Of a stretch of 64,000 bases of DNA, positions 773-58,547 are shown piece by piece (position 1 is the first letter of the stretch; each line of letters begins with the position of its first letter). The stretch covers positions 78,165-142,164 of the forward strand of contig JBBTUG010000012.1 of assembly GCA_038063895.1 (NCBI GenBank), read 5' to 3'. This DNA is from Patescibacteria group bacterium. GTDB taxonomy: Bacteria > Patescibacteriota > WWE3 > JAMCXX01 > JBBTUG01. The notes under the pieces were generated by a model. The model was not told the DNA's origin, did not search any database, and was given only the letters and a program-made list of their open reading frames with translations. The translations under genes and the position numbers were made by a program.

Positions 773-848
773 CGGGGTGTAGTTCAACTAGCAGAACGCA
801 CGCATGGGGTGCGTGAGGCACCCGGGGCAGCACCGGGCACCCCGACCA
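773..848 (+). tRNA. tRNA-Pro(GGG)-like cloverleaf with encoded CCA but a non-canonical T-loop (GGCAGCA); possibly a degenerate tRNA or tRNA-like element
   Basis: Four perfect Watson-Crick stems: acceptor cggggtg/caccccg with C1:G72, D-stem gttc/gaac, anticodon stem cacgc/gcgtg, T-stem cccgg/ccggg. Anticodon loop is aU-GGG-gu with U33 and G37, discriminator A73, then CCA. The T-loop lacks the T54-Psi55 and A58 positions and the D-loop has A18 instead of G18. Confidence 0.5.
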
Positions 849-858
849 AGCCTACAAA

Positions 859-1998
859 ATGGACTTAATTTTCCAAGATAGTAAAAAACGAATAATCGAT
901 AAGAAAGAGGCTGTTCCTTTTACTTTAGATGATTCAGGTTTTTACCTGGTAGGCGTCGCCGCACGCGCCAAAGATGAAAAACAAGTAGGCGGTACCGACG
1001 ACGATGACCTTAGAATCGAGTTAGATAAAACAACGTTTCCCCAACTTACCAACTTAAATCGGTATTTAGATTCACCGGCTGCATTCTCTGGAGGCAAACT
1101 CAGAGACCGTAAGCAACATGTGCTCACATTAACGAACCTTCAGAAAGGTACCCATAACCTTACATTAATCCCGGACGGTTCTCCAACCTTGGAAGAAATT
1201 AATATCTGGAAGCTCCCTTCCCAAAGCACCCTCGAACTAAAAATGAATAATACCGCCGAGGATGGAAACCGTCGGCCTTGGGTGGTGTTTATCTTATTAA
1301 ACGCTTCCCTTGGAGAGTTTTCAGTCGATCTGACCCTAAAACGCCGATTTATTGATAGTGATGATGTAAAAATAGCTGTTGATGGTGTCATTATCAGAAA
1401 CAACCGAAGTGTTCTTCATAAATTTTGGTATTTCATAGCTTCTTTATTCGGCCAGGAAATTAAAAGCAACACGTTTAAAACCAAATTAGCTATCGGACTT
1501 CATTACATCGAGTTATGGGCAGATCGAATGCCAACCCTTAATTCAATCACGTTTAGGGATCTAATATTCCCCCAATCAGAAGAAAAAGACCCCGTAGAAA
1601 TTATCAAAGATAAGATTATAGCCATGGCTAGAGAATACGGTTTCGACCCTGAAATGATGCTTCGGGTAGCAAAAAAAGAATCTCAATTCAATCCCCGAGC
1701 CGTCTCTCCCGCTGGAGCTAAAGGACTTTTTCAACTAATGCCAATTACAATTGATCAAATTAATAATTTAGGTTACGAGGTTAGCGATGTTTTTAATGTT
1801 GATCAAAACATTAAAGGCGCAATGATTTACTTCCAGTGGCTTTCAGGGATGTACCCCAAGGATGAAGAGTACTGGGAAAAGATCATGGCTGCTTGGAATT
1901 GGGGGCAAGGAAACTTTCCCAAAGAAGGACCGCTAGGTGCGTGGAAACCCGTTCCAAACGAAACTATTAACTTTATAAATTACGTTTTAAATAGATGA
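859..1998 (+). CDS. Two-domain protein with no signal peptide: conserved N-terminal domain of unknown function (~250 aa, paralogous to 56940..58301) plus a C-terminal lytic transglycosylase / SLT lysozyme-like domain
   Basis: C-terminus has the classic SLT motif ...KKESQFNPRAVSPAGAKGLFQLMPIT...AYN-like. N-terminal region aligns with the ORF at 56940..58301 (MxLIFxD..KR.I, ARAK.EKQ.G, DSPAA.SGGK, AEDGxRRPW, KRxxDSDDxKIxVDG, FWYF, GLHYxExxADRMP). Confidence 0.8.
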   Translation: MDLIFQDSKKRIIDKKEAVPFTLDDSGFYLVGVAARAKDEKQVGGTDDDDLRIELDKTTFPQLTNLNRYLDSPAAFSGGKLRDRKQHVLTLTNLQKGTHNLTLIPDGSPTLEEINIWKLPSQSTLELKMNNTAEDGNRRPWVVFILLNASLGEFSVDLTLKRRFIDSDDVKIAVDGVIIRNNRSVLHKFWYFIASLFGQEIKSNTFKTKLAIGLHYIELWADRMPTLNSITFRDLIFPQSEEKDPVEIIKDKIIAMAREYGFDPEMMLRVAKKESQFNPRAVSPAGAKGLFQLMPITIDQINNLGYEVSDVFNVDQNIKGAMIYFQWLSGMYPKDEEYWEKIMAAWNWGQGNFPKEGPLGAWKPVPNETINFINYVLNR

Positions 1999-2618
1999 AA
2001 ATACCTCTCTTTCCGACATTTTTGTTGTTTTCGGTGATTACAGTAAGTTCAGTAACCTTTTGGTTTTATGTCGCGACATTGTATCAAACTTCAAACAAAG
2101 CCAGCGTCACCCCCAAGTCTAACTCTCTAACTCAGGAAGTAATAGTGAACTTAAAAGAGAAAGGGCAGGTAATACCAATTAGGATTAAATCCTACGTGAC
2201 AGATAACTTTGAAGGTAAAACAGACATATTTGTTAATTCGGACAGCACTATACTAACCTCACTACACGGACTACTTCAAAATTCATATGCTATTGACATC
2301 GAAAATAACGGAGATGAAGAGCTGGTTGTTGGTGTTGTCTCCGGGAAGTTAGGTAACACAACCTTCTACCGTTATCAGAATGATCAATTAATACCAGTAC
2401 CAACTCACACTGGAAAACAGGAAGGCTTATCCGGTACCACCTCCTACCACTTTCCTCGATTTAAAGACATCGACAGCGATGGGGTCTTGGAAATGCTTTC
2501 TTACCATACTGCTTTCCCATTCGACGAAATAGGGGGACTGGAAGTTTACAAGTTCAACGGAATGAAATTTATGAAAATTGATGAGTATGAGGAGACTACC
2601 CAAGATTTCTATTTGTAA
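1995..2618 (+). CDS. Membrane-anchored protein (N-terminal TM / signal anchor) with FG-GAP-like repeats; candidate partner or immunity protein for the upstream lysozyme-like gene
   Basis: N-terminus MKIPLFPTFLLFSVITVSSVTFWFYV is hydrophobic. DIENNGDEELVVGVV and DIDSDGVLEMLSY are D.D.DG..-type FG-GAP-like motifs. The ATGA start/stop overlap with the upstream gene indicates an operon. Confidence 0.6.
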   Translation: MKIPLFPTFLLFSVITVSSVTFWFYVATLYQTSNKASVTPKSNSLTQEVIVNLKEKGQVIPIRIKSYVTDNFEGKTDIFVNSDSTILTSLHGLLQNSYAIDIENNGDEELVVGVVSGKLGNTTFYRYQNDQLIPVPTHTGKQEGLSGTTSYHFPRFKDIDSDGVLEMLSYHTAFPFDEIGGLEVYKFNGMKFMKIDEYEETTQDFYL

Positions 2619-2647: not shown

Positions 2648-3136
2648 ATGATCACCGACACCTATCCTCCATTCCTCGAAAAAATATTGTCCGGTCTTAA
2701 TGACAAAAAGGTTGAGGTGACTGATATGGAAATGGATCACATCGGCTATCAGACTGCATCCGGCCTCGAATATGAAAAGATGTTACCAGAGGTTGCCAAG
2801 CTTGGTCCGCAAATTCATGAGGCCGTTGTTCGGGGGCGGCGGGTCGCCATCTTTAAACTGAACGAGAAACTCAACTACCGAAATTACTTCATCAGCGCGA
2901 TAGAAGTAATTGAACCTTTAGCCGGGCAAGTGTGCAATTCAGGCTGGGAACATGCCGAATTCGTCATCGGAAACTCTTTTGAGACTTTTCTTAAGAAATA
3001 CCCAACGGTTGACTGGGACATCAGCGCGATAAATCAGGACACCTTCCCGATGATAAAACTTAAACTGGAAAACGGCCTCCAAGCCAAATTCCACCTCAAA
3101 CCTGTCTTAGAAATAATTCGGGATATTAAATCATGA
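2648..3136 (+). CDS. Hypothetical protein, possibly VOC/YecM-like metal-binding fold
   Basis: 162 aa ORF containing a DHIGYQTAS motif; 4-nt overlap with the downstream HD gene. The family assignment is weak. Confidence 0.4.
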   Translation: MITDTYPPFLEKILSGLNDKKVEVTDMEMDHIGYQTASGLEYEKMLPEVAKLGPQIHEAVVRGRRVAIFKLNEKLNYRNYFISAIEVIEPLAGQVCNSGWEHAEFVIGNSFETFLKKYPTVDWDISAINQDTFPMIKLKLENGLQAKFHLKPVLEIIRDIKS

Positions 3137-4134
3137 AATACTCGGATCGGGTTTACGGGCAATTCAACATTACCGAACCGGTGATTTTAGAACTGATTAA
3201 TTGCCCGGCCATTCAAAGATTGAAAAAGATCGATCAGGCCGGCTACAAACCGCTTTGGGCAAAGCCGGAAACCAGGGTCAATGGCACAGAAGCCAGCCGT
3301 TTCGCCCATTCCGTAGGTGTTTTTATTCTTCTCAACAAATATCAGGCTCCCTTAGAAGAGCAAATAGCCGGCTTAATCCACGATGTCTCTCATTCGGCAT
3401 TTTCCCACTGTATTGACTATGTTTTGGATTCCGGTTCGGAAAAAGAACACACCCACCAGGACAGGCTCTTTCCCAGTTTTGTCCGTAAATCGGGGATACC
3501 GAAAATACTCGAAAAATACGGGTTCGCTCTGGATTATATTTTAGATGACGGAAATTTTCCGTTAAAGGAAAAAGAGTTGCCGGATCTCTGTGCCGACCGG
3601 ATTGATTATTCGCTGAGAGAAGCCGTTATTTATAATGAGCTGGGTGAAAAAGACCGTAATTATCTTCTAGATTCATTAACCGTAAAAGATAACTACTGGG
3701 TATTCAGCAGTTTTGAGAGCGGAAAAAAATACGCAGAGCTGTTCTTCCAATTAAATACAATCTATTTCTCCGGCCTTCCATCGGCAGTAATGTTTCGGGC
3801 GGTTGGCGATTGCCTGAAATACGCCTTAAAAGTAGGTTACCTTTCGGAAAACGACCTCTACACTACCGATGAAAAGGTTCTGGGGAAAATTAGAAATAAG
3901 GTGGATTCGGACGGGAAATTGAGTGTACTTTGGGACCGGATGAACGGTGTCATCAAAGCCCACAATGACCCAAGCGATTATGAATCAACAGTTTTTTGTA
4001 AATCCAGAATAGTCGATCCTTTATTCCTTAATGGCACAAAAGTGCAAAGGTTATCGGAAACTAAGCCGGAGTGGAAAAAGGTCGTCGAGCGGGAATCGAA
4101 ACCAAAACAATATTTTTTGAAATTTGAAAGGTAA
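3133..4134 (+). CDS. HD-superfamily phosphohydrolase (COG1078 / dNTP triphosphohydrolase-like)
   Basis: RFAHSVGV...LIHDVSHSAFSH...CADRIDYSLRE matches the H..HD..H..D metal-binding pattern of dGTPase-like HD proteins. Confidence 0.75.
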   Translation: MKYSDRVYGQFNITEPVILELINCPAIQRLKKIDQAGYKPLWAKPETRVNGTEASRFAHSVGVFILLNKYQAPLEEQIAGLIHDVSHSAFSHCIDYVLDSGSEKEHTHQDRLFPSFVRKSGIPKILEKYGFALDYILDDGNFPLKEKELPDLCADRIDYSLREAVIYNELGEKDRNYLLDSLTVKDNYWVFSSFESGKKYAELFFQLNTIYFSGLPSAVMFRAVGDCLKYALKVGYLSENDLYTTDEKVLGKIRNKVDSDGKLSVLWDRMNGVIKAHNDPSDYESTVFCKSRIVDPLFLNGTKVQRLSETKPEWKKVVERESKPKQYFLKFER

Positions 4135-43354: not shown

Positions 43355-44506
43355 TTAGACCTGGTCGGGTTCTTCTGGTTCTCCCGATTGTAATAATTTG
43401 ATCTGTGGCAAAGCCTGGCCGGCGATACCTGTCATACTACCGTAGATACCCGAAACTCCTAATAGCAGCCTGTCAACCTGTATCTCTCTGAGTTTCCAGG
43501 ATCTTTCAGCCGACGCACGTTCTTTAGATATTTGTCCCTTCATCTCTAAATATGTTTCCGCCATTCTTTCAACTTGTTGTGCAAATTCATGACTCGTCAC
43601 GAAGTCGTACATTTCCTCGGCCGTACTTTGTTTTAGCGTAACTGTTGCTTTTTCTTTTGCCACATCGTAAAGATTTTTACGCAAAAGCGCCCCTAAGGGT
43701 TCTATAAGCTTTGGGCTAACAATCCAAACGCCGCCTTTTTCTCCTATTTCTTTTTTAAAATCAATCGGCAGGGCTTCGCTCACAATCACCCCTATATGGG
43801 CCTTATCTCGTTGTACATCTCCCTTTAACTTACTGATCCAGCTATCAGACCACGCTTTAGTTCTTTTACTTTCCCAGATTATTTTCCCGCATATTGTACC
43901 CCGGGCTGTTTTTATGGTATGCCGTATATCCCCACCCAATTCGCCTTTCTTAATCTCTTCTACCCCATCAGTGGGAAATAATCGCCTAAGCGTTTCTTCA
44001 AGATCAAGCTCTTGCACCTCACCCTGCAACTGCTGCGATCCTTGGTTTGCTTTTCGATTTGCGTCTTCGAGGGCTTTCGCTAGATCTGCCTTTTGCTTTT
44101 CGTATTCGGCAAACTTGAGTTTATCTTTCTCTATTTGTTCCTCCGTCGCTTTTAATCGTATCTTTTCGCGCTCTTCGTCCATTTGCCGTTGTTTTTCTAG
44201 CTCAAAGCTACGCCGGGCCTCATCTAATTCCCGTTTTTCCTTTCGTATTGCAAGTTCAGCATCCTCTGCCTTCTGCGCCCGGCCCTTTAAATTATTAATT
44301 TGTTCATCCTTGTCTTTCAGATCTTTAGAAAGTTGTTCTTTTGCTTTACTTTCTGCCGTTTCCGCCGCTTGTTTTCTCGCATCTTCGAGTTCCTGGAGGT
44401 GACGAGACTGAATAGACACAAGAATACGCTCTTCAGTTTGATGTGCTAGTGCTTCCGATACTTCAATCTCAAAACCGCACTTTTTGCACTTAATCGTTGT
44501 GTTCAT
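43355..44506 (-). CDS. DUF2130-family protein: N-terminal zinc ribbon, long coiled coil, C-terminal conserved domain
   Basis: MNTTIKCKKCGFEIEVSEALAHQ... followed by a Glu/Lys-rich coiled coil; 4-nt overlap with the upstream hsdS. Confidence 0.65.
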   Translation of the reverse strand: MNTTIKCKKCGFEIEVSEALAHQTEERILVSIQSRHLQELEDARKQAAETAESKAKEQLSKDLKDKDEQINNLKGRAQKAEDAELAIRKEKRELDEARRSFELEKQRQMDEEREKIRLKATEEQIEKDKLKFAEYEKQKADLAKALEDANRKANQGSQQLQGEVQELDLEETLRRLFPTDGVEEIKKGELGGDIRHTIKTARGTICGKIIWESKRTKAWSDSWISKLKGDVQRDKAHIGVIVSEALPIDFKKEIGEKGGVWIVSPKLIEPLGALLRKNLYDVAKEKATVTLKQSTAEEMYDFVTSHEFAQQVERMAETYLEMKGQISKERASAERSWKLREIQVDRLLLGVSGIYGSMTGIAGQALPQIKLLQSGEPEEPDQV

Positions 44507-45942
44507 AATTTTATCCTTAATTTTACTAGTTCCGTGTTAATCCACTCTTTCGCTTCCTTTTCGTTCTTCTCAATCGCCGTTTCCACGCCGTGCTTGGCGA
44601 TTTCAAGCAGAGCCTTTGACGAGTTCCCATCATTAAATGATTCTTCAACAAGTTTCTTGATTTCCTCTTGCTTATCGTTTTTCAAAAGGGGAATTATCGT
44701 TGCTGTGACTTGATCGGGTCGCCAATGATTAATAATCGATCCGCCGGCATCGCGTTCAATTTGTTTTTGGACGATCACGGAATTTAAAACAAGCGTCAGA
44801 TATTCCGGCAATACTTTTCGACTATCTACTATTAATCTCAAAATACCACCAGAAACTATCATTTTTTGCGATTCTTCGTTCAGATAATAGGCTAGGCCGG
44901 GCGTTGCGTCTTTTGAAAGCAATATCTCGCCTTTCTTCGGCTGATGAATTTTTAGTTCGTTGTACAATTCTTCGGATATAAACTGCTGATTGTTGTCGGA
45001 AAGCTCAAATTTAGAAATATTGCTCACGCGGACAAACGGCACGCCATTTTCTTTGTATGCGTCACTTCCTGGTTCAACGCTTTTTTTGATTTTCACTAAA
45101 TTCCCCAATTCATCAAACCCCCCTTTGTATTTTTTTACTGCAGCAATAAGTTCATCATATTTTGGCTGGAAATATTCCGCGTCGGCGCGCTCGGCGTACT
45201 TTACGCCAGAAAGTTTAACGACAAATACTAAGTCGTCTTCAACTTGATAATCCTTTAATCCCAATTCTTCCAAAAGCAGGTTTTCAGCGTTTGAATAATG
45301 TTGAGCTGCTACGATTTTATATTTTCTTGAGCTCTTTATAAGAGAATCAATTTTCTGCTGAAAAGAAATACTAGTAATCGGAATAGTAATATTTTCAACT
45401 TCCCTGCAATTTAGATTTACCTGCTCGGTTTGACGGCTTTGTTGCCAGAGCTGATACCGTCCATATTTTCCTCTTAAAAAAGATTCTAGGTAAGAAGAAA
45501 GGATAGTATCCAAGGGTCTAATCAAGGCTATATTCTGATTTATATTCATCTTTGGATCATCGACGAAAACCCGAGCGGTTCTCCCTACGATTTCATAGGA
45601 AGCACCTATTATAGTAACCAGAACATCCCTCTCTTTTGGTTCAGAGTATTTTCTACTTTCACCCACCGGTAAATTATCAGCGAATTCAAATTTAATCTCC
45701 CCGTCTCTAAGAGAATCGGTCTTTATAAACTTAATATCTGTACCGTCTTGTCTACAAATCCGCCGTTTTGGAGTTGTCCCCGTTAAAACAGGCCGGGATA
45801 CTAATTCCTTTAGTATTTTGGAACGTAAACCAGAATCACTAATGACTTTTTTGATTGACAAATATTCCGGTTGGTAATATTCCGCATCCAGCCGTAAGGA
45901 ACCTTCGAGTTGGGATTTTTGGATAACTGAATAGTTCATCAC
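44503..45942 (-). CDS. hsdS: Restriction-modification specificity subunit (HsdS-like, two target-recognition domains)
   Basis: LEGSLRLDAEYYQPEY at the N-terminus and the repeated conserved coiled region (...ELKIHQPKKGEILLSKDATPGLAYY...). Confidence 0.85.
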   Translation of the reverse strand: MMNYSVIQKSQLEGSLRLDAEYYQPEYLSIKKVISDSGLRSKILKELVSRPVLTGTTPKRRICRQDGTDIKFIKTDSLRDGEIKFEFADNLPVGESRKYSEPKERDVLVTIIGASYEIVGRTARVFVDDPKMNINQNIALIRPLDTILSSYLESFLRGKYGRYQLWQQSRQTEQVNLNCREVENITIPITSISFQQKIDSLIKSSRKYKIVAAQHYSNAENLLLEELGLKDYQVEDDLVFVVKLSGVKYAERADAEYFQPKYDELIAAVKKYKGGFDELGNLVKIKKSVEPGSDAYKENGVPFVRVSNISKFELSDNNQQFISEELYNELKIHQPKKGEILLSKDATPGLAYYLNEESQKMIVSGGILRLIVDSRKVLPEYLTLVLNSVIVQKQIERDAGGSIINHWRPDQVTATIIPLLKNDKQEEIKKLVEESFNDGNSSKALLEIAKHGVETAIEKNEKEAKEWINTELVKLRIKL

Positions 45943-46565
45943 AGGGGTTTGATTTTTGAGTATTTCAAAATTTCTATATAGGAAAGAAAAGCCTTGCCCG
46001 TGTTTGTTATCATAATATTACCTTCTTCATCGTTGGCTATTAAACCAGAGTTGAATAAGAAGCTTAGATAGTCTCCTATGTTGTAGTTTTTATGTATTGG
46101 GTATTGATTTTGTAGCCCTTGAAAAAACCCATTTTGCCCAGTGTTTGTTAAATGAGTGACTCTATTTAAAAACTCTAATAATCTTATCTGACTTCCAAAT
46201 ATAAAGTTGTAGATTCTTTCGAAACCTAAATAGACTTGCGTATTAGCCAGTTCATTCTGGAGTTTCCTTTCGTTATCCCCTAAACTCTTGATTTTTTCTT
46301 CATACTCATCTTTAATTTTGTTTAGGTTGGTATCCACTGATTTATTAAGGTCTTCTTCCTGTAACTCTTTTGTTTTTTTATTTTGTTCTTCGATTTGGTC
46401 CCCAATATCAATCTGCGTATCGCCAGGCCCTTTAATACTTTTAATTCCAGCAATCAGGTTTCTGATACTCGATCTAAAGTAAATTAGTGAGCAGGAAACA
46501 ATGAAGGGCCAGGTAATTGCTTTTGTGTAATCCAATAAAAGTTTCCAATCCATTTCTACCTCCAA
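45939..46565 (-). CDS. Hypothetical protein encoded between the MTase and S genes: N-terminal TM helix, central coiled coil, C-terminal domain of unknown function
   Basis: AITWPFIVSCSLIYF TM segment; translationally coupled (overlaps) on both sides within the R-M operon. Confidence 0.6.
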   Translation of the reverse strand: MEVEMDWKLLLDYTKAITWPFIVSCSLIYFRSSIRNLIAGIKSIKGPGDTQIDIGDQIEEQNKKTKELQEEDLNKSVDTNLNKIKDEYEEKIKSLGDNERKLQNELANTQVYLGFERIYNFIFGSQIRLLEFLNRVTHLTNTGQNGFFQGLQNQYPIHKNYNIGDYLSFLFNSGLIANDEEGNIMITNTGKAFLSYIEILKYSKIKPL

Positions 46566-48517
46566 AAACTAAATTTTTGCTCCTTGGCGAATTTAATAAA
46601 GGCTTCGGCGATTTCGTCTAAGTCGTGGTCAAGAACCTTGCGAAAGTTGGCGTCGTGGACGTGATTTCCGTCTGCGTCTTTCTTGTAAAGATAATCACCG
46701 GAGTTGTCTTTCCCCGGCCTCTTGGAGACAGCCATAAAAATTGGGTAGTCGGGTAGCGGTTCTCCCGTTTCTCCGCCCCATTTCTGCAAAAACAAAACAG
46801 ATGTCTTTGTTCCGGTATGGGGCTTAAAGGTATTGCCATGGAGTCCGACCACTGCCAAAATCCGCGCTTTTTCGAATAGATATTCGCGAATGTATTCCAT
46901 ATTGGTGTTATTTAAGACGCCTTGGGGTAGCACAATGGCTATTCGTCCTCCGGGTCGTACCATATCCAAAGCCCGCTCAATAAATAAAATGTGCCTTTCG
47001 ACTTTATTAACTAACTTTCCCTTCTTTTTTCCAAAATCATATTGGCGAAGTATCCCGGTGTCCTTGATTTCACCGGCGAAAGGGGGGTTAGTCAAAAGTA
47101 AATCAAAATTAAAATTGTGAAACGTTTTTCTATTTTCTTCGTTGTCCGATGAATTAACGCTTTCCAATAACCTTGTTTGGAGCTTGGCTCGTGCATCCAA
47201 AAGATTACCGCTTTCACCTTGCCACTCTCGGGGATCCAGCGAATTAAGTTTAAACATGTGTGACCTCCCGTCGCCGGCAATCAGCATCAAAGCCCGGGAA
47301 ACTTTGGAGATTTCCTCGGCAAAGTCAATTCCCCAGAGATGTTCTTTTGAATACTCTTTAACCGACTCGTCAACCCGGCCTAAGTACTTTTCCTTTATCC
47401 AGTTCATCGTTTGGATAAGAAAACCGCCGGAACCGGCGGCCGGATCGATTATGTATTCACTACTCTTTGGGTTTAGCATTTTAACCGCCATGGCAATAAC
47501 GTGACGGGGTGTGAAATATTGACCCTTCTTACCCTTGGCCACTTCCGGAATCAAATACTCAAAGGCTTCGTCCACGATGGATAAATCGGAACCAAACAAG
47601 CGCGCTTTCTCTAATTCCGCTACAACAATCGACAGGTGTTCAGGGGAAAGGTTAATATTTTCCTGCTCCAAAAACGTCCCCGGCCATTTTTTAATTGCTT
47701 GTTTAAAGAGATTGTTAATAACGGAGTAGGTTTTGGCTTGGTCTTTGTACTTGCGGAAAAATACTTCTTTGTCTGAACGATTCAGCCGGGCTTCATTTTC
47801 GTCGAAAAGTTTCGCGTAAACGAGCTTAAAGACCTCGGTAAAAACATCCACGCCGGCGTTAGCCAGAACAAGCTCCTCCATTTGTTCGATGATTTCTTTG
47901 AGATTGGCGCTTTTATCGGTATATTCAAAAAGAGTTTTTTTAGACTCTAAAAGATCGTCGATCGTTTTTCCGGCAGAGGGCAAGTCCGGCAGAGTATCAT
48001 TGAATTCTTTGGGGTAGGGACGGTACAAAATAATTCTTTTTACCCCGTTGGACCAAAGGCCAATCTCCGCCCCTTCCGCCGAAAGGTAGCTTTTAAGCTG
48101 CTCAATGCCTCTACTCTCGGTTGGGCTTTTAACTTCAATAATAATGTAGGGAGTAATTTTGTCCGGTTTATAGACAACCACGTCCGCGGCCTTCGCGTGG
48201 ATTTCTCGGCCAAAGTGGACGCTTTTTTCGGTGTCGATTCGGTCAAGCGGATACTGGTAGTAAGTGTTGAGTTTATGGATCCATAACTGGCGGACAATTT
48301 CTTCCGGTTTCCCGGTTTGTTTCCGGTCGTCAAAAACGAATTTTTGACCGCCCGATTTTAAATCTTTCACATAAAAACGGTGGGGCTCGTCTTCAGTTAT
48401 GTGTAAAACTTCCGCGATTTCTACCTCGCTAAACTCCCTTAATCCGTAGACTGTATCACTATCTCCAAAAACTTTGTCTATGATTTCACTTGATTTGTTG
48501 GGCTTAATTGTTGGCAT
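46556..48517 (-). CDS. Restriction-modification fusion protein: N-terminal PD-(D/E)xK nuclease-like domain + N6-adenine DNA methyltransferase (HsdM-type). Start taken at the Met at 48517.
   Basis: Nuclease-like D...EVK (DVVVYKPDKITPYIIIEVKSP). MTase motif I IIDPAAGSGGFL and motif IV LLTNPPFAGE. Confidence 0.8.
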   Translation of the reverse strand: MPTIKPNKSSEIIDKVFGDSDTVYGLREFSEVEIAEVLHITEDEPHRFYVKDLKSGGQKFVFDDRKQTGKPEEIVRQLWIHKLNTYYQYPLDRIDTEKSVHFGREIHAKAADVVVYKPDKITPYIIIEVKSPTESRGIEQLKSYLSAEGAEIGLWSNGVKRIILYRPYPKEFNDTLPDLPSAGKTIDDLLESKKTLFEYTDKSANLKEIIEQMEELVLANAGVDVFTEVFKLVYAKLFDENEARLNRSDKEVFFRKYKDQAKTYSVINNLFKQAIKKWPGTFLEQENINLSPEHLSIVVAELEKARLFGSDLSIVDEAFEYLIPEVAKGKKGQYFTPRHVIAMAVKMLNPKSSEYIIDPAAGSGGFLIQTMNWIKEKYLGRVDESVKEYSKEHLWGIDFAEEISKVSRALMLIAGDGRSHMFKLNSLDPREWQGESGNLLDARAKLQTRLLESVNSSDNEENRKTFHNFNFDLLLTNPPFAGEIKDTGILRQYDFGKKKGKLVNKVERHILFIERALDMVRPGGRIAIVLPQGVLNNTNMEYIREYLFEKARILAVVGLHGNTFKPHTGTKTSVLFLQKWGGETGEPLPDYPIFMAVSKRPGKDNSGDYLYKKDADGNHVHDANFRKVLDHDLDEIAEAFIKFAKEQKFSFWR

Positions 48518-48524
48518 AAAACAT

Positions 48525-49163
48525 CTAGCTAACCTGACTCCATCGGTTATTCTTAAATAAAGAAACAACCTTGCCGATTAGTTTCATTTCCTCGGTTATG
48601 GGAATTATTGGATAGTTCGGGTTCTCCGGTTTTAAGTAAACGTATGGTGGCGTGTCCGTGGAAACAAAACGTTTAATGGTGGTTTCTCCATTTATATCCG
48701 CCAAGACCACGTTCCCCGAAACAAATTCCTTGTCCGCTTTTACTAGAACCAAATCTTCATCTTCTATCCCCGCGTTAATCATGGAATCTCCATGAACTTT
48801 TAGAACAAAAACTTCGTCGTCGAGCTGTTCTAAGTCGTTAGAGACCTTCCGCCAGTTTCCGGATATTTCTATTGCTTCCGCTGGTTTACCTGCCGTTGTG
48901 GTTCCAAAAATCGGAACTAGAGATGGACGGGAAAGCTCTTTATACCCTAATGGTAAGACGGTAACACCTCTGGCGGTGGCTTCGTTCCTCTTTATTAATT
49001 TATGGTTCTCCAATTTGGACAGTAGATCAAGGATAGATTGATTTGAGGAAACATTGAGTTTATCTTTCATTTCTTCGAAAGTTGGGGGATAACCGGTAAC
49101 ATCAATAAAGTTGTATATCACCTCAAGAAGCTCTCTTTGTCTTTTTGTGACAGCCTTTTTCAT
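48525..49163 (-). CDS. lexA: LexA repressor (S24 peptidase with N-terminal wHTH)
   Basis: N-terminal LexA DNA-binding domain (KRQRELLEVIYNFIDVTGYPPTFEEM...), Ser-Lys dyad region (VHGDSMINAGIEDEDLVLVK...TIKRF). Confidence 0.85.
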   Translation of the reverse strand: MKKAVTKRQRELLEVIYNFIDVTGYPPTFEEMKDKLNVSSNQSILDLLSKLENHKLIKRNEATARGVTVLPLGYKELSRPSLVPIFGTTTAGKPAEAIEISGNWRKVSNDLEQLDDEVFVLKVHGDSMINAGIEDEDLVLVKADKEFVSGNVVLADINGETTIKRFVSTDTPPYVYLKPENPNYPIIPITEEMKLIGKVVSLFKNNRWSQVS

Positions 49164-49485: not shown

Positions 49486-49560
49486 GGCGCGGTGGCGAAG
49501 TGGAAACGCTGGAGTCTGCAAAACTTCGATGCGAGGGTTCGATTCCCTCCCGCGCCTCCA
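49486..49560 (+). tRNA. tRNA-Cys(GCA) with encoded CCA
   Basis: Acceptor GGCGCGG/CCGCGCC, U8, D-loop with GG, anticodon stem ggagt/acttc, loop cU-GCA-aa, T-arm gaggg-TTCGATT-ccctc, discriminator U, CCA. Confidence 0.9.
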
Positions 49561-55423: not shown

Positions 55424-56041
55424 TCATATCAAACTCATCTGATTCTCGTCGTCTTTTTTCTTCCCTACGACTTTCATCTCACTCTTATCCATCTTCAAAA
55501 TCGCAGGGATTCGGCGGAACTCGGCCTTAAGCTGGAGCAGAACCTTTTCCGACCGAAGCGCGGCCGCCGGGTGATAAAGCGGATAAATTATTTTTCCGGA
55601 CACATAAAACGGTTTGCCGTGGTCGCGGGAAATTTTGCCGTCAGGCAGAAAATGTTCGAGAGCATAACGGCCGAGGGGGATAATCATCTTCGGGCCGATG
55701 GCCTTCAGCTGCTCGATTAAAAAAGCTTTACAGGTCCGGACTTCATCCACCATCGGATTGCGGTTTTCCGGAGGCCGGCATTTAACTACGTTGCTGATCC
55801 AAACTTTTTCCCGCCGGGTTCCGATCGAACGCAGCAGCATCTCCAAAAGATCCCCCGCCCGGCCGACGAAGGGTTTGCCTTGCTGATCTTCGTTGTAGCC
55901 CGGACCCTCACCAACAAAACAAATCTGGGCGTTCGAGTCGCCGACGCCCGGAACAGCGTAGTGTCGGGTCCGGTAAAGGCGGCAAAGTTTGCAGCGAATT
56001 ATTTGGCGGGCAAGCTGTTCCAGCAGTTTCTCTTTATGCAT
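55424..56041 (-). CDS. Uracil-DNA glycosylase, family 4
   Basis: CKLCRL...AQICFVGEGPGYNEDQQGKPFVGRAGDLL. Confidence 0.85.
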   Translation of the reverse strand: MHKEKLLEQLARQIIRCKLCRLYRTRHYAVPGVGDSNAQICFVGEGPGYNEDQQGKPFVGRAGDLLEMLLRSIGTRREKVWISNVVKCRPPENRNPMVDEVRTCKAFLIEQLKAIGPKMIIPLGRYALEHFLPDGKISRDHGKPFYVSGKIIYPLYHPAAALRSEKVLLQLKAEFRRIPAILKMDKSEMKVVGKKKDDENQMSLI

Positions 56042-56110
56042 TTGGAAAAAGTTTCTTCAGCGATTCAACAAGGAGGATAGCACAGATGAAAAAAGTTAAA
56101 AAGGCAGAAA
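55975..56110. repeat. Direct repeat copy R1 (~135 bp; UDG 5' end plus upstream region), about 85% identical to 58405..58540
   Basis: ttgcatttggaaaaagttt(ct/aa)tcagcgattcaa(c/g)aaggag(g/a)atagcacag is shared nearly exactly; similarity extends into the first ~25 UDG codons. Confidence 0.8.
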
Positions 56111-56127: not shown

Positions 56128-56958
56128 CTACAGCCTATGCAGTATCCGGTCACACTCCCCAACACCAACCTCTTGACCGTGCTCGGTCAATAAAGCTTGT
56201 TCCGTAAGACACTCTAATACGGGATAGTAGAAGTGAACGTCCGGTTCCCATTCTTTGTTAGTTAAGACCAAGTCGTAGAGATTGATTAAGGCGGTGTACT
56301 CTTGGGGAAAGAGGTGGTTGACCTTAACCGGCGAGGCTCCGTCCAATTTCCAAACATCCTTCCAGCGGAGAAGATCCCGCTCCATTTTACCGTTACCGGA
56401 AAGGGAGTACTCATGAACGATCTCCTCTTTTATATCACCGTCTAAATCCCGGATTTCGATTTTATTGCTGTTCTCGATCAGCTTTAGGATCAGCTTGAAC
56501 CGCCCCTTCCCGTACGAGTAAAGATAAAAAGGATGAACCCCGGCGGTCCCGGTATTGGCGTACTGGACCAAGAAATAACTATCCCCACCGGTGCTGCTAC
56601 CGCCGAGGTTGTCAAACCGAAACCAGTCAAGGTATTCTCCGGGCACGGGAAAGTAGTTGTCTCTTAGATAAGGCTTACCCTCGGGCAACCATTCGATAAA
56701 ATTATTTTGATAGTCGATCAGGGCTAGTCCGGACAGGTTGGCAATAAGATTATAGACGGAGGCGACTTGCCGGTTCTCACCGAGATTGCTAGTCATTTCG
56801 ATACTTAACGATTTGGCCGGATAATTTCGCAGCAAAAGGTAGCGGCGCGTATCTTCAATTCCTAAAACCTTTCGCTGTGAACGTTCTTTAAGCGCCCAGA
56901 CAGTTACCGCTAACACCAACAGGGCCAGGCTTAAATAAATTATTTTCCTTCTGCCCAT
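56128..56958 (-). CDS. Membrane-anchored FG-GAP-like protein, paralogous in architecture to 1995..2618; partner of the upstream lysozyme-like gene
   Basis: N-terminal anchor IIYLSLALLVLAVTVWAL; IRDLDGDIKEEIVHEYSL FG-GAP-like motif; 19-nt overlap with the upstream gene. Confidence 0.6.
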   Translation of the reverse strand: MGRRKIIYLSLALLVLAVTVWALKERSQRKVLGIEDTRRYLLLRNYPAKSLSIEMTSNLGENRQVASVYNLIANLSGLALIDYQNNFIEWLPEGKPYLRDNYFPVPGEYLDWFRFDNLGGSSTGGDSYFLVQYANTGTAGVHPFYLYSYGKGRFKLILKLIENSNKIEIRDLDGDIKEEIVHEYSLSGNGKMERDLLRWKDVWKLDGASPVKVNHLFPQEYTALINLYDLVLTNKEWEPDVHFYYPVLECLTEQALLTEHGQEVGVGECDRILHRL

Positions 56959-58301
56959 ACCGTCTCTCCTTGACTGTCAGTTCCTTCCAGATGAACCTTC
57001 CAGGTATCAAGAGTGTAGTTTTCAGCTTGGGCGGAAGCGTTGTAATAATAGACAGCCTCACGCCAAGACAGCCACCAGCGCCGGTAAGGAGGGTTGAGCG
57101 ACTCGGTTTCCGGCCCGCTGAATTGTTGAGCCTTGTGGTAGAGCCAACGGACACCCCAAAAAATACTTTCCTGCGGTGTGGTCACTTTAATCGGTAGTCG
57201 TTCCGGCGGGTAGCTATAGCTGAGATGTTTATAGACAGCTTCATTAATGAACTCGTTGGCGGCGTTTTTAAATTTCTCTTCCGGTTTCATGTGTTGGGGG
57301 GTCTTATTTCTCTCATCCCAAACCTGCATGACGTCCGGAAAAGACGGATAGCCGGTGGAGGACTTGCCGTAACCCATCCGACTCTCAATGTAGATCATGG
57401 CTTTGACCAGATCGGGATTGAGCGGATCGGGTGGCGGAAAATTTTGAGTGAGGAAGAAATTATTCCAAAAGCGAGTTGCCTGCTCAATCGCCGTATCATA
57501 CTTGTTATAGCGGTTATCCTTATACTCTCTTATCTTACCCGCCGTTTCGGAAAGATCCAGTTCGACGTAGTCAACGTAGGGCATTCGGTCGGCGTAGATT
57601 TCAACGTAATGCAAACCTTGAGGTAAGTTCGTTCTAAAGCTGGCAGTTGTCTGTTTATTCAACAGCAGAGAACCGGCAAAGTACCAGAAACGGTAAAACC
57701 ACTCCCGCGGTAACGATTCTTTAGGCTTCTCTTTTAGTTCCCTAAAGTTGGTTTTGACCTCGCCGTCAACCACGATTTTAAGGTCATCGCTATCCCTGTA
57801 TCTTTTCTTGACGATCGCATTAACAGTTAAGGCCGCGAGCGGTATGTTATCAAGGATAAAGGCTAGCCACGGACGGCGGTCCCCATCCTCCGCCGAGCTT
57901 TTGACCCCTATTGACGCAGCTGGTCCTGGCTCCAAGGTGTAGACTTCCAAGCTTTCAAACGTGGCCGTACCGGGAGGGTTTTCCGCGGAAAGAGTTACCT
58001 GATGATCTCCGTCTTTGAGGAAAGTCAGAAAATAGGTGGTCTGGGAGAGGTTGTAGGACTTACCGCCGGAAATCGCGGCCGGCGAGTCAACGAAACGGCT
58101 GGGATTTCCCAACTTGGGATAAATCTTAGCGTCGATCTGGATGGTTAAATCTTCATCATCGGTGGCGTTCGGTCCCAGCTGTTTTTCGCCCTTGGCTCGA
58201 GCCGTGAGTTTAAGGAGGTATAAAGAGGAAGAACTAGAGAACGTAATCTTTTCGTTTCCCTTAATTGTTCTTTTATTCTTATCCGCAAAGATGAGTTCCA
58301 T
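56940..58301 (-). CDS. Two-domain protein with no signal peptide: conserved N-terminal domain shared with 859..1998 plus a divergent C-terminal lysozyme-like (GH23-like) domain
   Basis: N-terminal alignment to the 859..1998 product (MELIFADKNKRTI...ARAKGEKQLG...DSPAAISGGK...AEDGDRRPW...KRYRDSDDLKIVVDG...RFWYF...GLHYVEIYADRMP). C-terminal IYIESRMGYG...DVMQVW resembles the E-S...G.MQ. lysozyme-like catalytic region. Confidence 0.75.
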   Translation of the reverse strand: MELIFADKNKRTIKGNEKITFSSSSSLYLLKLTARAKGEKQLGPNATDDEDLTIQIDAKIYPKLGNPSRFVDSPAAISGGKSYNLSQTTYFLTFLKDGDHQVTLSAENPPGTATFESLEVYTLEPGPAASIGVKSSAEDGDRRPWLAFILDNIPLAALTVNAIVKKRYRDSDDLKIVVDGEVKTNFRELKEKPKESLPREWFYRFWYFAGSLLLNKQTTASFRTNLPQGLHYVEIYADRMPYVDYVELDLSETAGKIREYKDNRYNKYDTAIEQATRFWNNFFLTQNFPPPDPLNPDLVKAMIYIESRMGYGKSSTGYPSFPDVMQVWDERNKTPQHMKPEEKFKNAANEFINEAVYKHLSYSYPPERLPIKVTTPQESIFWGVRWLYHKAQQFSGPETESLNPPYRRWWLSWREAVYYYNASAQAENYTLDTWKVHLEGTDSQGETVWAEGK

Positions 58302-58404
58302 TTCGCCTTACTTTCGGTACCTGATTCTAGATTAAGGTACGTAGCTGAAGGTTGTCAAGATAAACTTTTAAGTGAAGCCGCACTGATTAGAAAACTCGGG
58401 TTCC

Positions 58405-58540
58405 TGGCCCGGGGCAGTCAGCAAGTCTGGTAGCGGACCACCTGTTTGGCAATCTGCTCGAGGAGTTTTTCTTTTTGCATTTGGAAAAAGTTTAATCAGC
58501 GATTCAAGAAGGAGAATAGCACAGCGGTAGGAAGTTAAAA
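58405..58540. repeat. Direct repeat copy R2 (see 55975..56110)
   Basis: Aligned by eye to R1; located between the HD-like gene's 3' end and the lysozyme-like gene's start. Confidence 0.8.
58418..58480 (-). pseudogene. Truncated duplicate of the UDG 5' end (MQKEKLLEQIAKQVVRYQTC*), inside direct-repeat copy R2
   Basis: 20 codons homologous to the UDG N-terminus MHKEKLLEQLARQIIRCKLC, then TGA. Confidence 0.75.
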
Positions 58541-58547
58541 AGAAGAA

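Follow-up and report, generated by a model that had tools for sequence, protein, structure and literature searches.

Two paralogous gene cassettes for putative modular muralytic enzymes and their membrane partners in a Patescibacteria genome

A stretch of 64,000 nucleotides (nt) from a Patescibacteria group bacterium of the WWE3 lineage (assembly GCA_038063895.1, contig JBBTUG010000012.1, positions 78,165 to 142,164), here called the window, carries a two-gene cassette near each of its ends. The two cassettes, A and B, encode putative modular muralytic enzymes, each with a membrane partner, and are paralogous members of one uncharacterised family, whose named sources belong almost all to the candidate phyla radiation (CPR). 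In each cassette the first gene (A1 or B1) encodes an enzyme that lacks a signal peptide and the second gene (A2 or B2) encodes a protein with a hydrophobic N-terminal segment and an FG-GAP-like domain. Because many relatives make both parts as one chain, the second gene likely specifies a built-in membrane subunit and not an antidote. Each cassette may thus form a two-part, membrane-coupled enzyme that cuts the glycan strands of the cell wall, with the partner as a constitutive subunit; this is the reading we favour, tentatively and with slightly less than even confidence. The genes and domains are as follows.

859..1998, forward strand: A1, signal-less enzyme of 379 amino acids (aa), with a tandem N-domain similar to carbohydrate-binding modules (CBM-like) and an SLT/GH23 lytic transglycosylase domain
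859..1557, forward strand: N-domain of A1, residues 1-233, with beta-jelly-roll sandwiches at residues 1-119 and 125-233
1591..1986, forward strand: SLT catalytic domain of A1, residues 245-376, with the codon of Glu274 at 1678-1680
1995..2618, forward strand: A2, partner of 207 aa, with a hydrophobic N-terminal helix at about residues 4-29, then an FG-GAP-like domain (DIDSDG)
56940..58301, reverse strand: B1, signal-less enzyme of 453 aa, with the same type of N-domain and a divergent GH23 lysozyme-like B-type domain
57555..58301, reverse strand: N-domain of B1, residues 1-249
56949..57515, reverse strand: B-type catalytic domain of B1, GH23-like, residues 263-451, with the codon of Glu306 at 57384-57386
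56128..56958, reverse strand: B2, partner of 276 aa, with a hydrophobic segment at residues 6-23 (anchor or signal peptide), then an FG-GAP-like domain (DLDGD)

An earlier sequence-only reading of this DNA had described paralogous two-gene cassettes at both ends of the window, translational coupling of the genes within each, and enzymes without signal peptides. All four open reading frames (ORFs) lie where it had placed them, and the other two claims agree with what was found. The reading frames of A1 and A2 overlap by ATGA, and those of B1 and B2 by 19 nt, with a Shine-Dalgarno sequence AAGGAGA preceding B2. Joining of A1 and A2 into one chain by read-through of UGA is ruled out by the sequence itself, as the two frames differ. 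A1 and B1 have no signal peptide, since their frames are closed 14 and 2 codons 5' of the ATG, respectively, and residues 2-7 form the first strand of the first jelly-roll sandwich in the predicted enzyme structures (pLDDT 97). Identical copies of A1 and B1 are recorded in metagenome-assembled genomes (MAGs) named 'Patescibacteria group bacterium'.

The N-terminal domain of about 250 aa that had been thought common to both enzymes is indeed shared: A1 and B1 have 40% identity in the first ~247 residues (E 2e-55). From a second alignment, a weaker one, this N-domain proves to be an internal duplication itself, and by predicted structure and fold search it consists of two CBM-like beta-jelly-rolls in tandem. 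The N-domain has no sequence match in Pfam, NCBIfam or PDB and is new in that it is absent from domain databases. The sequence-only reading would have been contradicted by an N-domain from a known housekeeping family with an invariant C-terminus; no family was found, and the C-terminus varies. Two acidic motifs, DDxDL and DSDDxK, are conserved in both halves of the N-domain and may be of the kind that binds structural calcium in such modules, and the jelly-rolls would hold glycan or a wall polymer. Acidic motifs of the calcium-binding type, CBM-like modules and SH3_3 modules are all typical of extracellular proteins. In nearly all full-length matches, the N-domain starts at residue 1 or within about 25 residues of it.

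A profile search with the N-domain against 1.84 billion cluster representatives gave a family of 330 clusters, 236 of them at E values up to 1e-10. The named sources are almost all CPR bacteria (Amesbacteria, Daviesbacteria, Gottesmanbacteria, Roizmanbacteria, WWE3, Magasanikbacteria, Falkowbacteria, Yanofskybacteria, Kuenenbacteria and others), along with a few MAG labels outside the CPR, which are unverified. Up to five cassettes of three classes occur in one genome (CAYHYS01, with five loci), in a group whose genomes measure about 1 Mb. The picture is of a family inherited mostly vertically as two-gene units, with some turnover.

As had been proposed, the catalytic domains behind the N-domain differ between the two copies. 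In A1 it is an SLT domain (PF01464), which scores above the curated cut-off and has the lysozyme-like fold with the catalytic Glu in an E-S motif; this residue, Glu274, is invariant among relatives. For the C-terminal domain of B1, nothing significant was found in Pfam, PHROGs, NCBIfam, an hmmsearch against PDB, or hhalign comparisons with the SLT and Hydrolase_2 profiles, and only the fold search resolved it, as a GH23-like, lysozyme-like domain. Its Glu306-Ser307 pair is conserved. A homologue search with this domain alone returned five proteins and missed B1 itself, and a profile derived from the loci returned about 80. The B-type domain is a new GH23 subfamily and has no Pfam entry. A GH23 domain with an intact catalytic Glu would be expected to cleave the MurNAc-GlcNAc backbone of peptidoglycan.

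The wider range of catalytic domains was surveyed with local hidden Markov models on 79 species-representative loci and on the best 150 of the 330 cluster representatives. Five classes were found behind the N-domain, namely SLT, SleB-like Hydrolase_2, B-type, T4 and T5, and they account for all complete proteins but four. The T4 class is lysozyme-like by weak profile matches (Pfam DUF1402 at 3.7e-7, and weak matches to Tse3-cat and SLT), and T5, for which no database match was obtained, is assigned by motif only. In three of the four unclassed proteins, that is, in three of about 120 complete representatives, the catalytic domain has been lost. No nuclease, deaminase, pore-former or other toxin domain is attached to the N-domain anywhere in this sample. 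The three proteins without a catalytic domain (P0245, P0299 and P0306) consist of the N-domain, a transmembrane (TM) helix and an FG-GAP-like ectodomain, and P0245 looks like a deletion derivative of P0241, a long form with an SLT domain. The enzyme of locus L041 keeps a short remnant of the catalytic domain and then a TM helix behind the N-domain. In the long SLT forms P0211, P0241 and P0231, an SH3_3 domain of the wall-binding type sits between the N-domain and SLT.

The partners are also variable. FG-GAP repeats are marked by a calcium-binding DxDxDG motif in the blades of a beta-propeller. A2 scores 26.7 bits with FG-GAP_3 (PF13517), just under the cut-off of 26.9, and carries the motif DIDSDG; B2 has no match to FG-GAP_3 and carries DLDGD. 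Related partners reach 16-26 bits with the same profile, and some fused relatives have a precomputed PF13517 match. Across the 79 loci, short enzymes (375-445 aa) nearly always have behind them an ORF of 134-306 aa whose product begins with a hydrophobic helix. The two genes typically overlap by 4 nt, and no enzyme has an N-terminal hydrophobic segment. When the partners were clustered, their families mapped one-to-one onto the catalytic classes. Twenty-five Hydrolase_2 enzymes have one partner family in common, and the SLT enzymes have another, which contains A2 and, via transitive links, B2. The B-type enzymes pair with FG-GAP_3-like proteins and the T4 enzymes with a DUF218 protein (Pfam 5e-28). 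The T4 class always precedes this N-terminally anchored protein of SanA/ElyC type (L034, L037, L039, L042, L043 and L059, which are loci of Parcubacteria type). By profile comparison the A2-type and B2-type families are related (hhalign probability 65%, E 6e-5). Orthologues of A2 come after SLT-type enzymes, and in a metagenome search with the A2-type partner, a gene with N-domain and SLT lay directly upstream in eight of the nine loci that had enough upstream sequence. Thus one of nine testable partners is an orphan, and there are no arrays. The orphan is an A2-type gene at 2992-3594 of locus L097, where a divergent gene for a GNAT acetyltransferase stands in the enzyme's place. From these class-specific partners, it appears that enzyme and partner have been inherited as one unit, which was occasionally fused or split.

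Fusion of the two parts is common. In long enzymes (550-940 aa), a single TM helix comes directly after the catalytic domain, and behind it lies a domain of 150-430 aa. In the set of the best 150 representatives, a TM helix after the catalytic domain is present in 61 of 68 long forms versus one of 51 short forms, and the long forms make up about 57% of the complete representatives (68 long to 51 short). For A2 the match in fused chains is to residues ~530-720 of P0241, P0231 and P0319 (E 7e-9 to 5e-8), and B2 matches the C-terminal parts of P0200 (1e-33), P0204 (3.5e-32), P0341 (4e-27) and P0158 (3e-26). The TM helix lies in between in all fused matches to A2 and B2, and three apparent exceptions are N-terminally truncated records. 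Because the partner is homologous to the C-terminal part of the fused chains, the two belong to a single unit, of which the TM helix is also a part. Split and fused members occur together in each of the three largest partner families (SleB-like, SLT and main B-type); fusion or fission has therefore occurred repeatedly.

A working scheme for the membrane-coupled unit would be as follows. The first part (A1 or B1) is made without a signal peptide, and its CBM-like jelly-rolls would hold the glycan that the GH23 domain cuts. The second part (A2 or B2), whose translation is coupled to that of the first, provides one hydrophobic helix and an FG-GAP-like extracytoplasmic domain. This partner would act as a tether, and probably as the gate or regulator through which the signal-less enzyme gains access to the wall. 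By analogy with the phage lysins M4Lys and Enc34 ORF39, the enzyme may cross the membrane by a Sec-independent route for which the TM domain is required. The wall that is cut could be the cell's own or that of a host.

Several observations weigh against this scheme. In the fused forms, the bias of lysine plus arginine puts the enzyme in the cytoplasm (N-terminal excess in 34, C-terminal excess in 10), a side on which no substrate is known. The N-terminus of the partner is built like a signal anchor (N-in, C-out), yet the enzyme is composed like a wall hydrolase that acts outside the cell. The split enzymes have no tether and the partner shows few residues to the cytoplasm, and an association of the two is not obvious. 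Strict class-specific pairing is also expected of an effector-immunity pair, and the low GC of the cassettes, together with a repeat at cassette B, makes some mobility likely. Cysteine is strongly depleted in the short forms (0.12% versus 0.60%); this does not settle the location of the enzyme, because no depletion is seen in the enzyme part of the long forms.

It was proposed in the sequence-only reading that the cassettes are polymorphic effector-immunity modules. On such a reading the hydrolase would be exported by a contact-dependent route against the wall of a competitor or host, and the downstream protein would be its immunity protein or inhibitor. Two of its elements stand, modularity and cognate pairing: the family of the variable membrane partner co-varies strictly with the catalytic class. 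A signal-less muralytic enzyme coupled to the gene of an extracytoplasmic protein would suit such a module, as would several paralogous cassettes per genome (five in CAYHYS01), cassette GC below that of the flanks, the repeat around cassette B, and the weak Tse3-muramidase/DUF1402 signature of one sister class. The immunity role, however, is not supported. About 57% of complete representatives fuse the enzyme and the supposed immunity protein across a TM helix, and there is no fusion without this helix; to our knowledge, effector-immunity pairs do not operate with toxin and antidote covalently joined through a membrane. The N-domain is CBM-like and not a recognisable trafficking domain, and it has no link to a secretion system. 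Whether it is fused to other toxin domains elsewhere had been raised as a question; it does join exchangeable wall-degrading domains, but no other kinds of toxin: all attached domains are glycan-cleaving. One partner class is DUF218, a domain of the envelope-biogenesis type. Secretion genes are not adjacent, the housekeeping synteny of cassette A with tRNA-Pro and rpsI is conserved, and orphan partners and arrays, as noted above, are rare or absent. We know of no description of type VI or type VII secretion systems (T6SS, T7SS) in CPR bacteria. Taken together, an effector-immunity function is quite unlikely. A VirB1-type hydrolase of a type IV secretion system (T4SS) was also considered and set aside: published work on the T4SS of Patescibacteria (PMC12102498) reports different architectures, and neither cassette has virB genes close by.

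Another explanation is a domesticated or prophage-type lysis cassette, in which a cytoplasmic endolysin is released by the partner's TM helix acting like a holin and serves autolysis or a release that resembles type 10 secretion. The enzymes do have the make-up of endolysins: they lack a signal peptide, combine a lysozyme-like domain with binding modules (CBM-like ones, plus SH3_3 in the long SLT forms) and are encoded next to a single-TM protein; PHROG matches to lytic tail proteins and endolysins were obtained, over the SLT part only; and phages offer precedents for both split (holin/endolysin) and fused (M4Lys/Enc34) forms. Yet no phage genes are found nearby, and the partners, with 134-306 aa and a large folded ectodomain, are unlike holins. 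Phage origin was rejected on structural grounds as well, because the matches in BFVD are to generic jelly-rolls with TM-scores of at most 0.21, so that no close viral structural relative exists there. PADLOC gave no match for any of A1, A2, B1 and B2, by which a role in anti-phage defence was rejected too. Up to five cassettes per ~1 Mb genome, conservation across CPR classes and stable synteny argue against killing, and a lysis cassette is in our view as improbable as an effector-immunity pair. The enzyme might instead remain in the cytoplasm as the glycan-cleaving output of an extracellular sensor, acting across the TM helix on imported wall fragments or lipid-linked glycans. The same domain order, with an N-terminal cytoplasmic output, a TM segment and a C-terminal sensor, is found in anti-sigma factors and PknB-type kinases; the absence of a signal peptide anywhere in the family and the positive-inside bias of the fused forms also point in this direction. 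However, GH23 and SleB-type enzymes have no known substrate in the cytoplasm, modules of the CBM-like and SH3_3 types and acidic motifs of the calcium type (DDxDL, DSDDxK) are typical of extracellular proteins, the short forms are strongly depleted of cysteine, and split forms would have nothing to couple the sensor to the output. A cytoplasmic role is the least probable of the three. All three are less well supported than the membrane-coupled muralytic unit.

The surroundings of the cassettes are those of an ordinary CPR/Patescibacteria chromosome. The window contains a ribosomal-protein operon with rpoA, and RNase J, FtsK, UDG, PNPase and LexA, as well as very long ORFs of rpoB/rpoC size. 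No secretion-system genes flank either cassette, and no phage genes are near them, the neighbours being recA, recX, RNase Y, ribosomal proteins, UDG, RNase J and FtsK. The GC content of the cassettes is on average 3 points lower than that of the flanks (40 of 51 loci), and that of cassette A is 0.40, compared with 0.485 in the window as a whole.

Cassette A lies between a gene for tRNA-Pro(GGG) and the rpsI-rplM-rplQ end of the ribosomal cluster in the window, in locus L024, whose enzyme is 56% identical to A1, and in Amesbacteria. In the sister species of locus L105, the tRNA is found 13 nt before the ATG of the enzyme. The corresponding gene in the window is listed here.

773..849, forward strand: tRNA-Pro(GGG)-like gene, 10 nt 5' of the ATG of A1, with a cloverleaf and an encoded CCA

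ARAGORN and Rfam gave nothing significant on the leader of A1, and this gene was found by manual folding and alignment. Its acceptor, D and anticodon arms align with the bona fide tRNA-Pro(GGG) of Amesbacteria (L005:513-586) and with L105:1-96, and there is a compensatory change in the anticodon stem. Its T-loop reads GGCAGCA versus the usual TTCRANY. A divergent HNH_repeat (PF18780) gene lies 5' of tRNA-Pro and A1 (positions 1 to ~760 of the window, reverse strand; L001:5095-5805), followed by recA, recX and RNase Y. GC is 0.40-0.42 throughout segment 859-4134 of the window, versus 0.485 for the whole; besides A1 and A2, this segment contains a YecM-like gene and one for an HD-domain protein. 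In L105 the gene after the partner is a different one (Exo_endo_phos), and the interval from tRNA-Pro to rpsI seems to be a variable region.

Cassette B lies between DUF4202 and UDG, and the same site is occupied in a species whose B1 is 76% identical. The direct repeat that brackets it, which had been taken as a mark of insertion or exchange, is real: it is 137 nt long and its copies are 75% identical.

55967..56103: direct repeat, copy 1; holds the start of the live UDG gene (55424..56041, reverse strand), with its first ~25 codons and the region upstream of them
58406..58542: direct repeat, copy 2; upstream of B1, a dead remnant of the UDG start (MQKEKLLEQIAKQVVRYQTC*)

As evidence of insertion, however, the repeat is weak. 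It is absent in the sister species of locus L104, although cassette B stands at the same site there, and it therefore says little about the arrival of the cassette. As an insertion footprint it was rejected: it may be a local duplication specific to one lineage, or a footprint lost in the sister. L104 keeps about 70 nt of the conserved leader of B1, including a TTGACA box (~58354-58359 of the window). Elsewhere in the window, a restriction-modification block at 43355-48568 (reverse strand) with a GC of 0.40-0.41 looks like an island. It comprises a DUF2130 protein, a Methylase_S specificity subunit, an ORF of 208 aa without a Pfam match and an N6_Mtase+HSDR_N fusion, and adjoins LexA (48525-49163) and tRNA-Cys (49486-49560).

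Known systems resemble the cassettes in parts. Compared with GH23 lytic transglycosylases and goose-type lysozymes such as Slt70, MltC, MltE and MltF, A1 and B1 lack a signal peptide or lipobox and add the N-terminal tandem CBM-like module and a dedicated TM partner, and B1 falls below all profile thresholds. In SleB-YpeB of Bacillus spores, a bicistronic pair, the wall-lytic SleB depends on YpeB, which is anchored by its N-terminus; a signal peptide and a PG_binding_1 domain are present in SleB, and PepSY domains in YpeB. The CPR cassettes are alike in pairing an enzyme with an N-terminally anchored partner, and a sister class even carries Hydrolase_2 (PF07486). However, the enzymes of the window are GH23-type and a Pfam scan found no PG_binding_1 in them; the Hydrolase_2 class has no signal peptide, and its partners have no PepSY match. 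The muramidase effector-immunity pairs Tse3-Tsi3 of T6SS and TelC-TipC of T7SS also combine a signal-less enzyme with an adjacent cognate extracytoplasmic protein. With these and with polymorphic toxins, the CPR modules share exchangeable C-terminal domains behind a constant N-terminal region, but they have no trafficking domain, are often fused through a TM helix, are limited to glycan cleavage and sit in housekeeping synteny. LytA is a signal-less cellular autolysin amidase with choline-binding repeats, and its route to the wall is unclear. The CPR enzymes are likewise wall hydrolases with wall-binding modules and no signal peptide, whereas LytA has no dedicated membrane partner.

It has been shown that M4Lys of phage BSPM4 and Enc34 ORF39 are signal-less proteins of lysozyme fold, in which a C-terminal TM domain is needed for wall access or lysis, with neither Sec nor a holin (PMC7143992; PMC8943055). 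The fused relatives of A1/A2 and B1/B2 have the same order, a signal-less lysozyme-fold enzyme and then a TM helix. In contrast to the phage lysins, the CPR family is chromosomal and multi-copy, with CBM-like modules in front and an ectodomain of 150-430 aa after the TM helix, is split in the window, and has no sequence relation or close structural relation to the phage proteins. Such lysins are the nearest precedent for a signal-less enzyme that reaches the wall, and the only one found.

The CPR (Patescibacteria) form a large and mostly uncultured part of bacterial diversity, whose growth, division and host attachment are poorly understood. The family described here is nearly confined to them and is multi-copy in very small genomes, and its N-domain and B-type domain have no Pfam entry. 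It joins three features that make an odd trio: modules that bind and cut the wall, the lack of a signal peptide, and a genetic or covalent link to an outward-facing single-pass protein. One unlikely but far-reaching extension is that the cassettes are a contact-gated device for breaching walls, in which the ectodomain (FG-GAP-like, PD40-like or DUF218) recognises a host and the TM helix gates the Sec-independent release or translocation of the CBM-lysozyme part onto the host wall at the attachment site. The catalytic classes and multiple cassettes would then reflect differing wall chemistries of hosts. If true, this would be a new way to move a folded enzyme across a membrane, and would give a handle on how episymbionts open their hosts. 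Since fused and split variants occur naturally, the question of export is directly testable. Either cells would prove to have a Sec-independent, TM-helix-dependent route for a folded muralytic enzyme, so far known only from a small number of phage lysins, or lysozyme-like enzymes would turn out to have a role in the cytoplasm.

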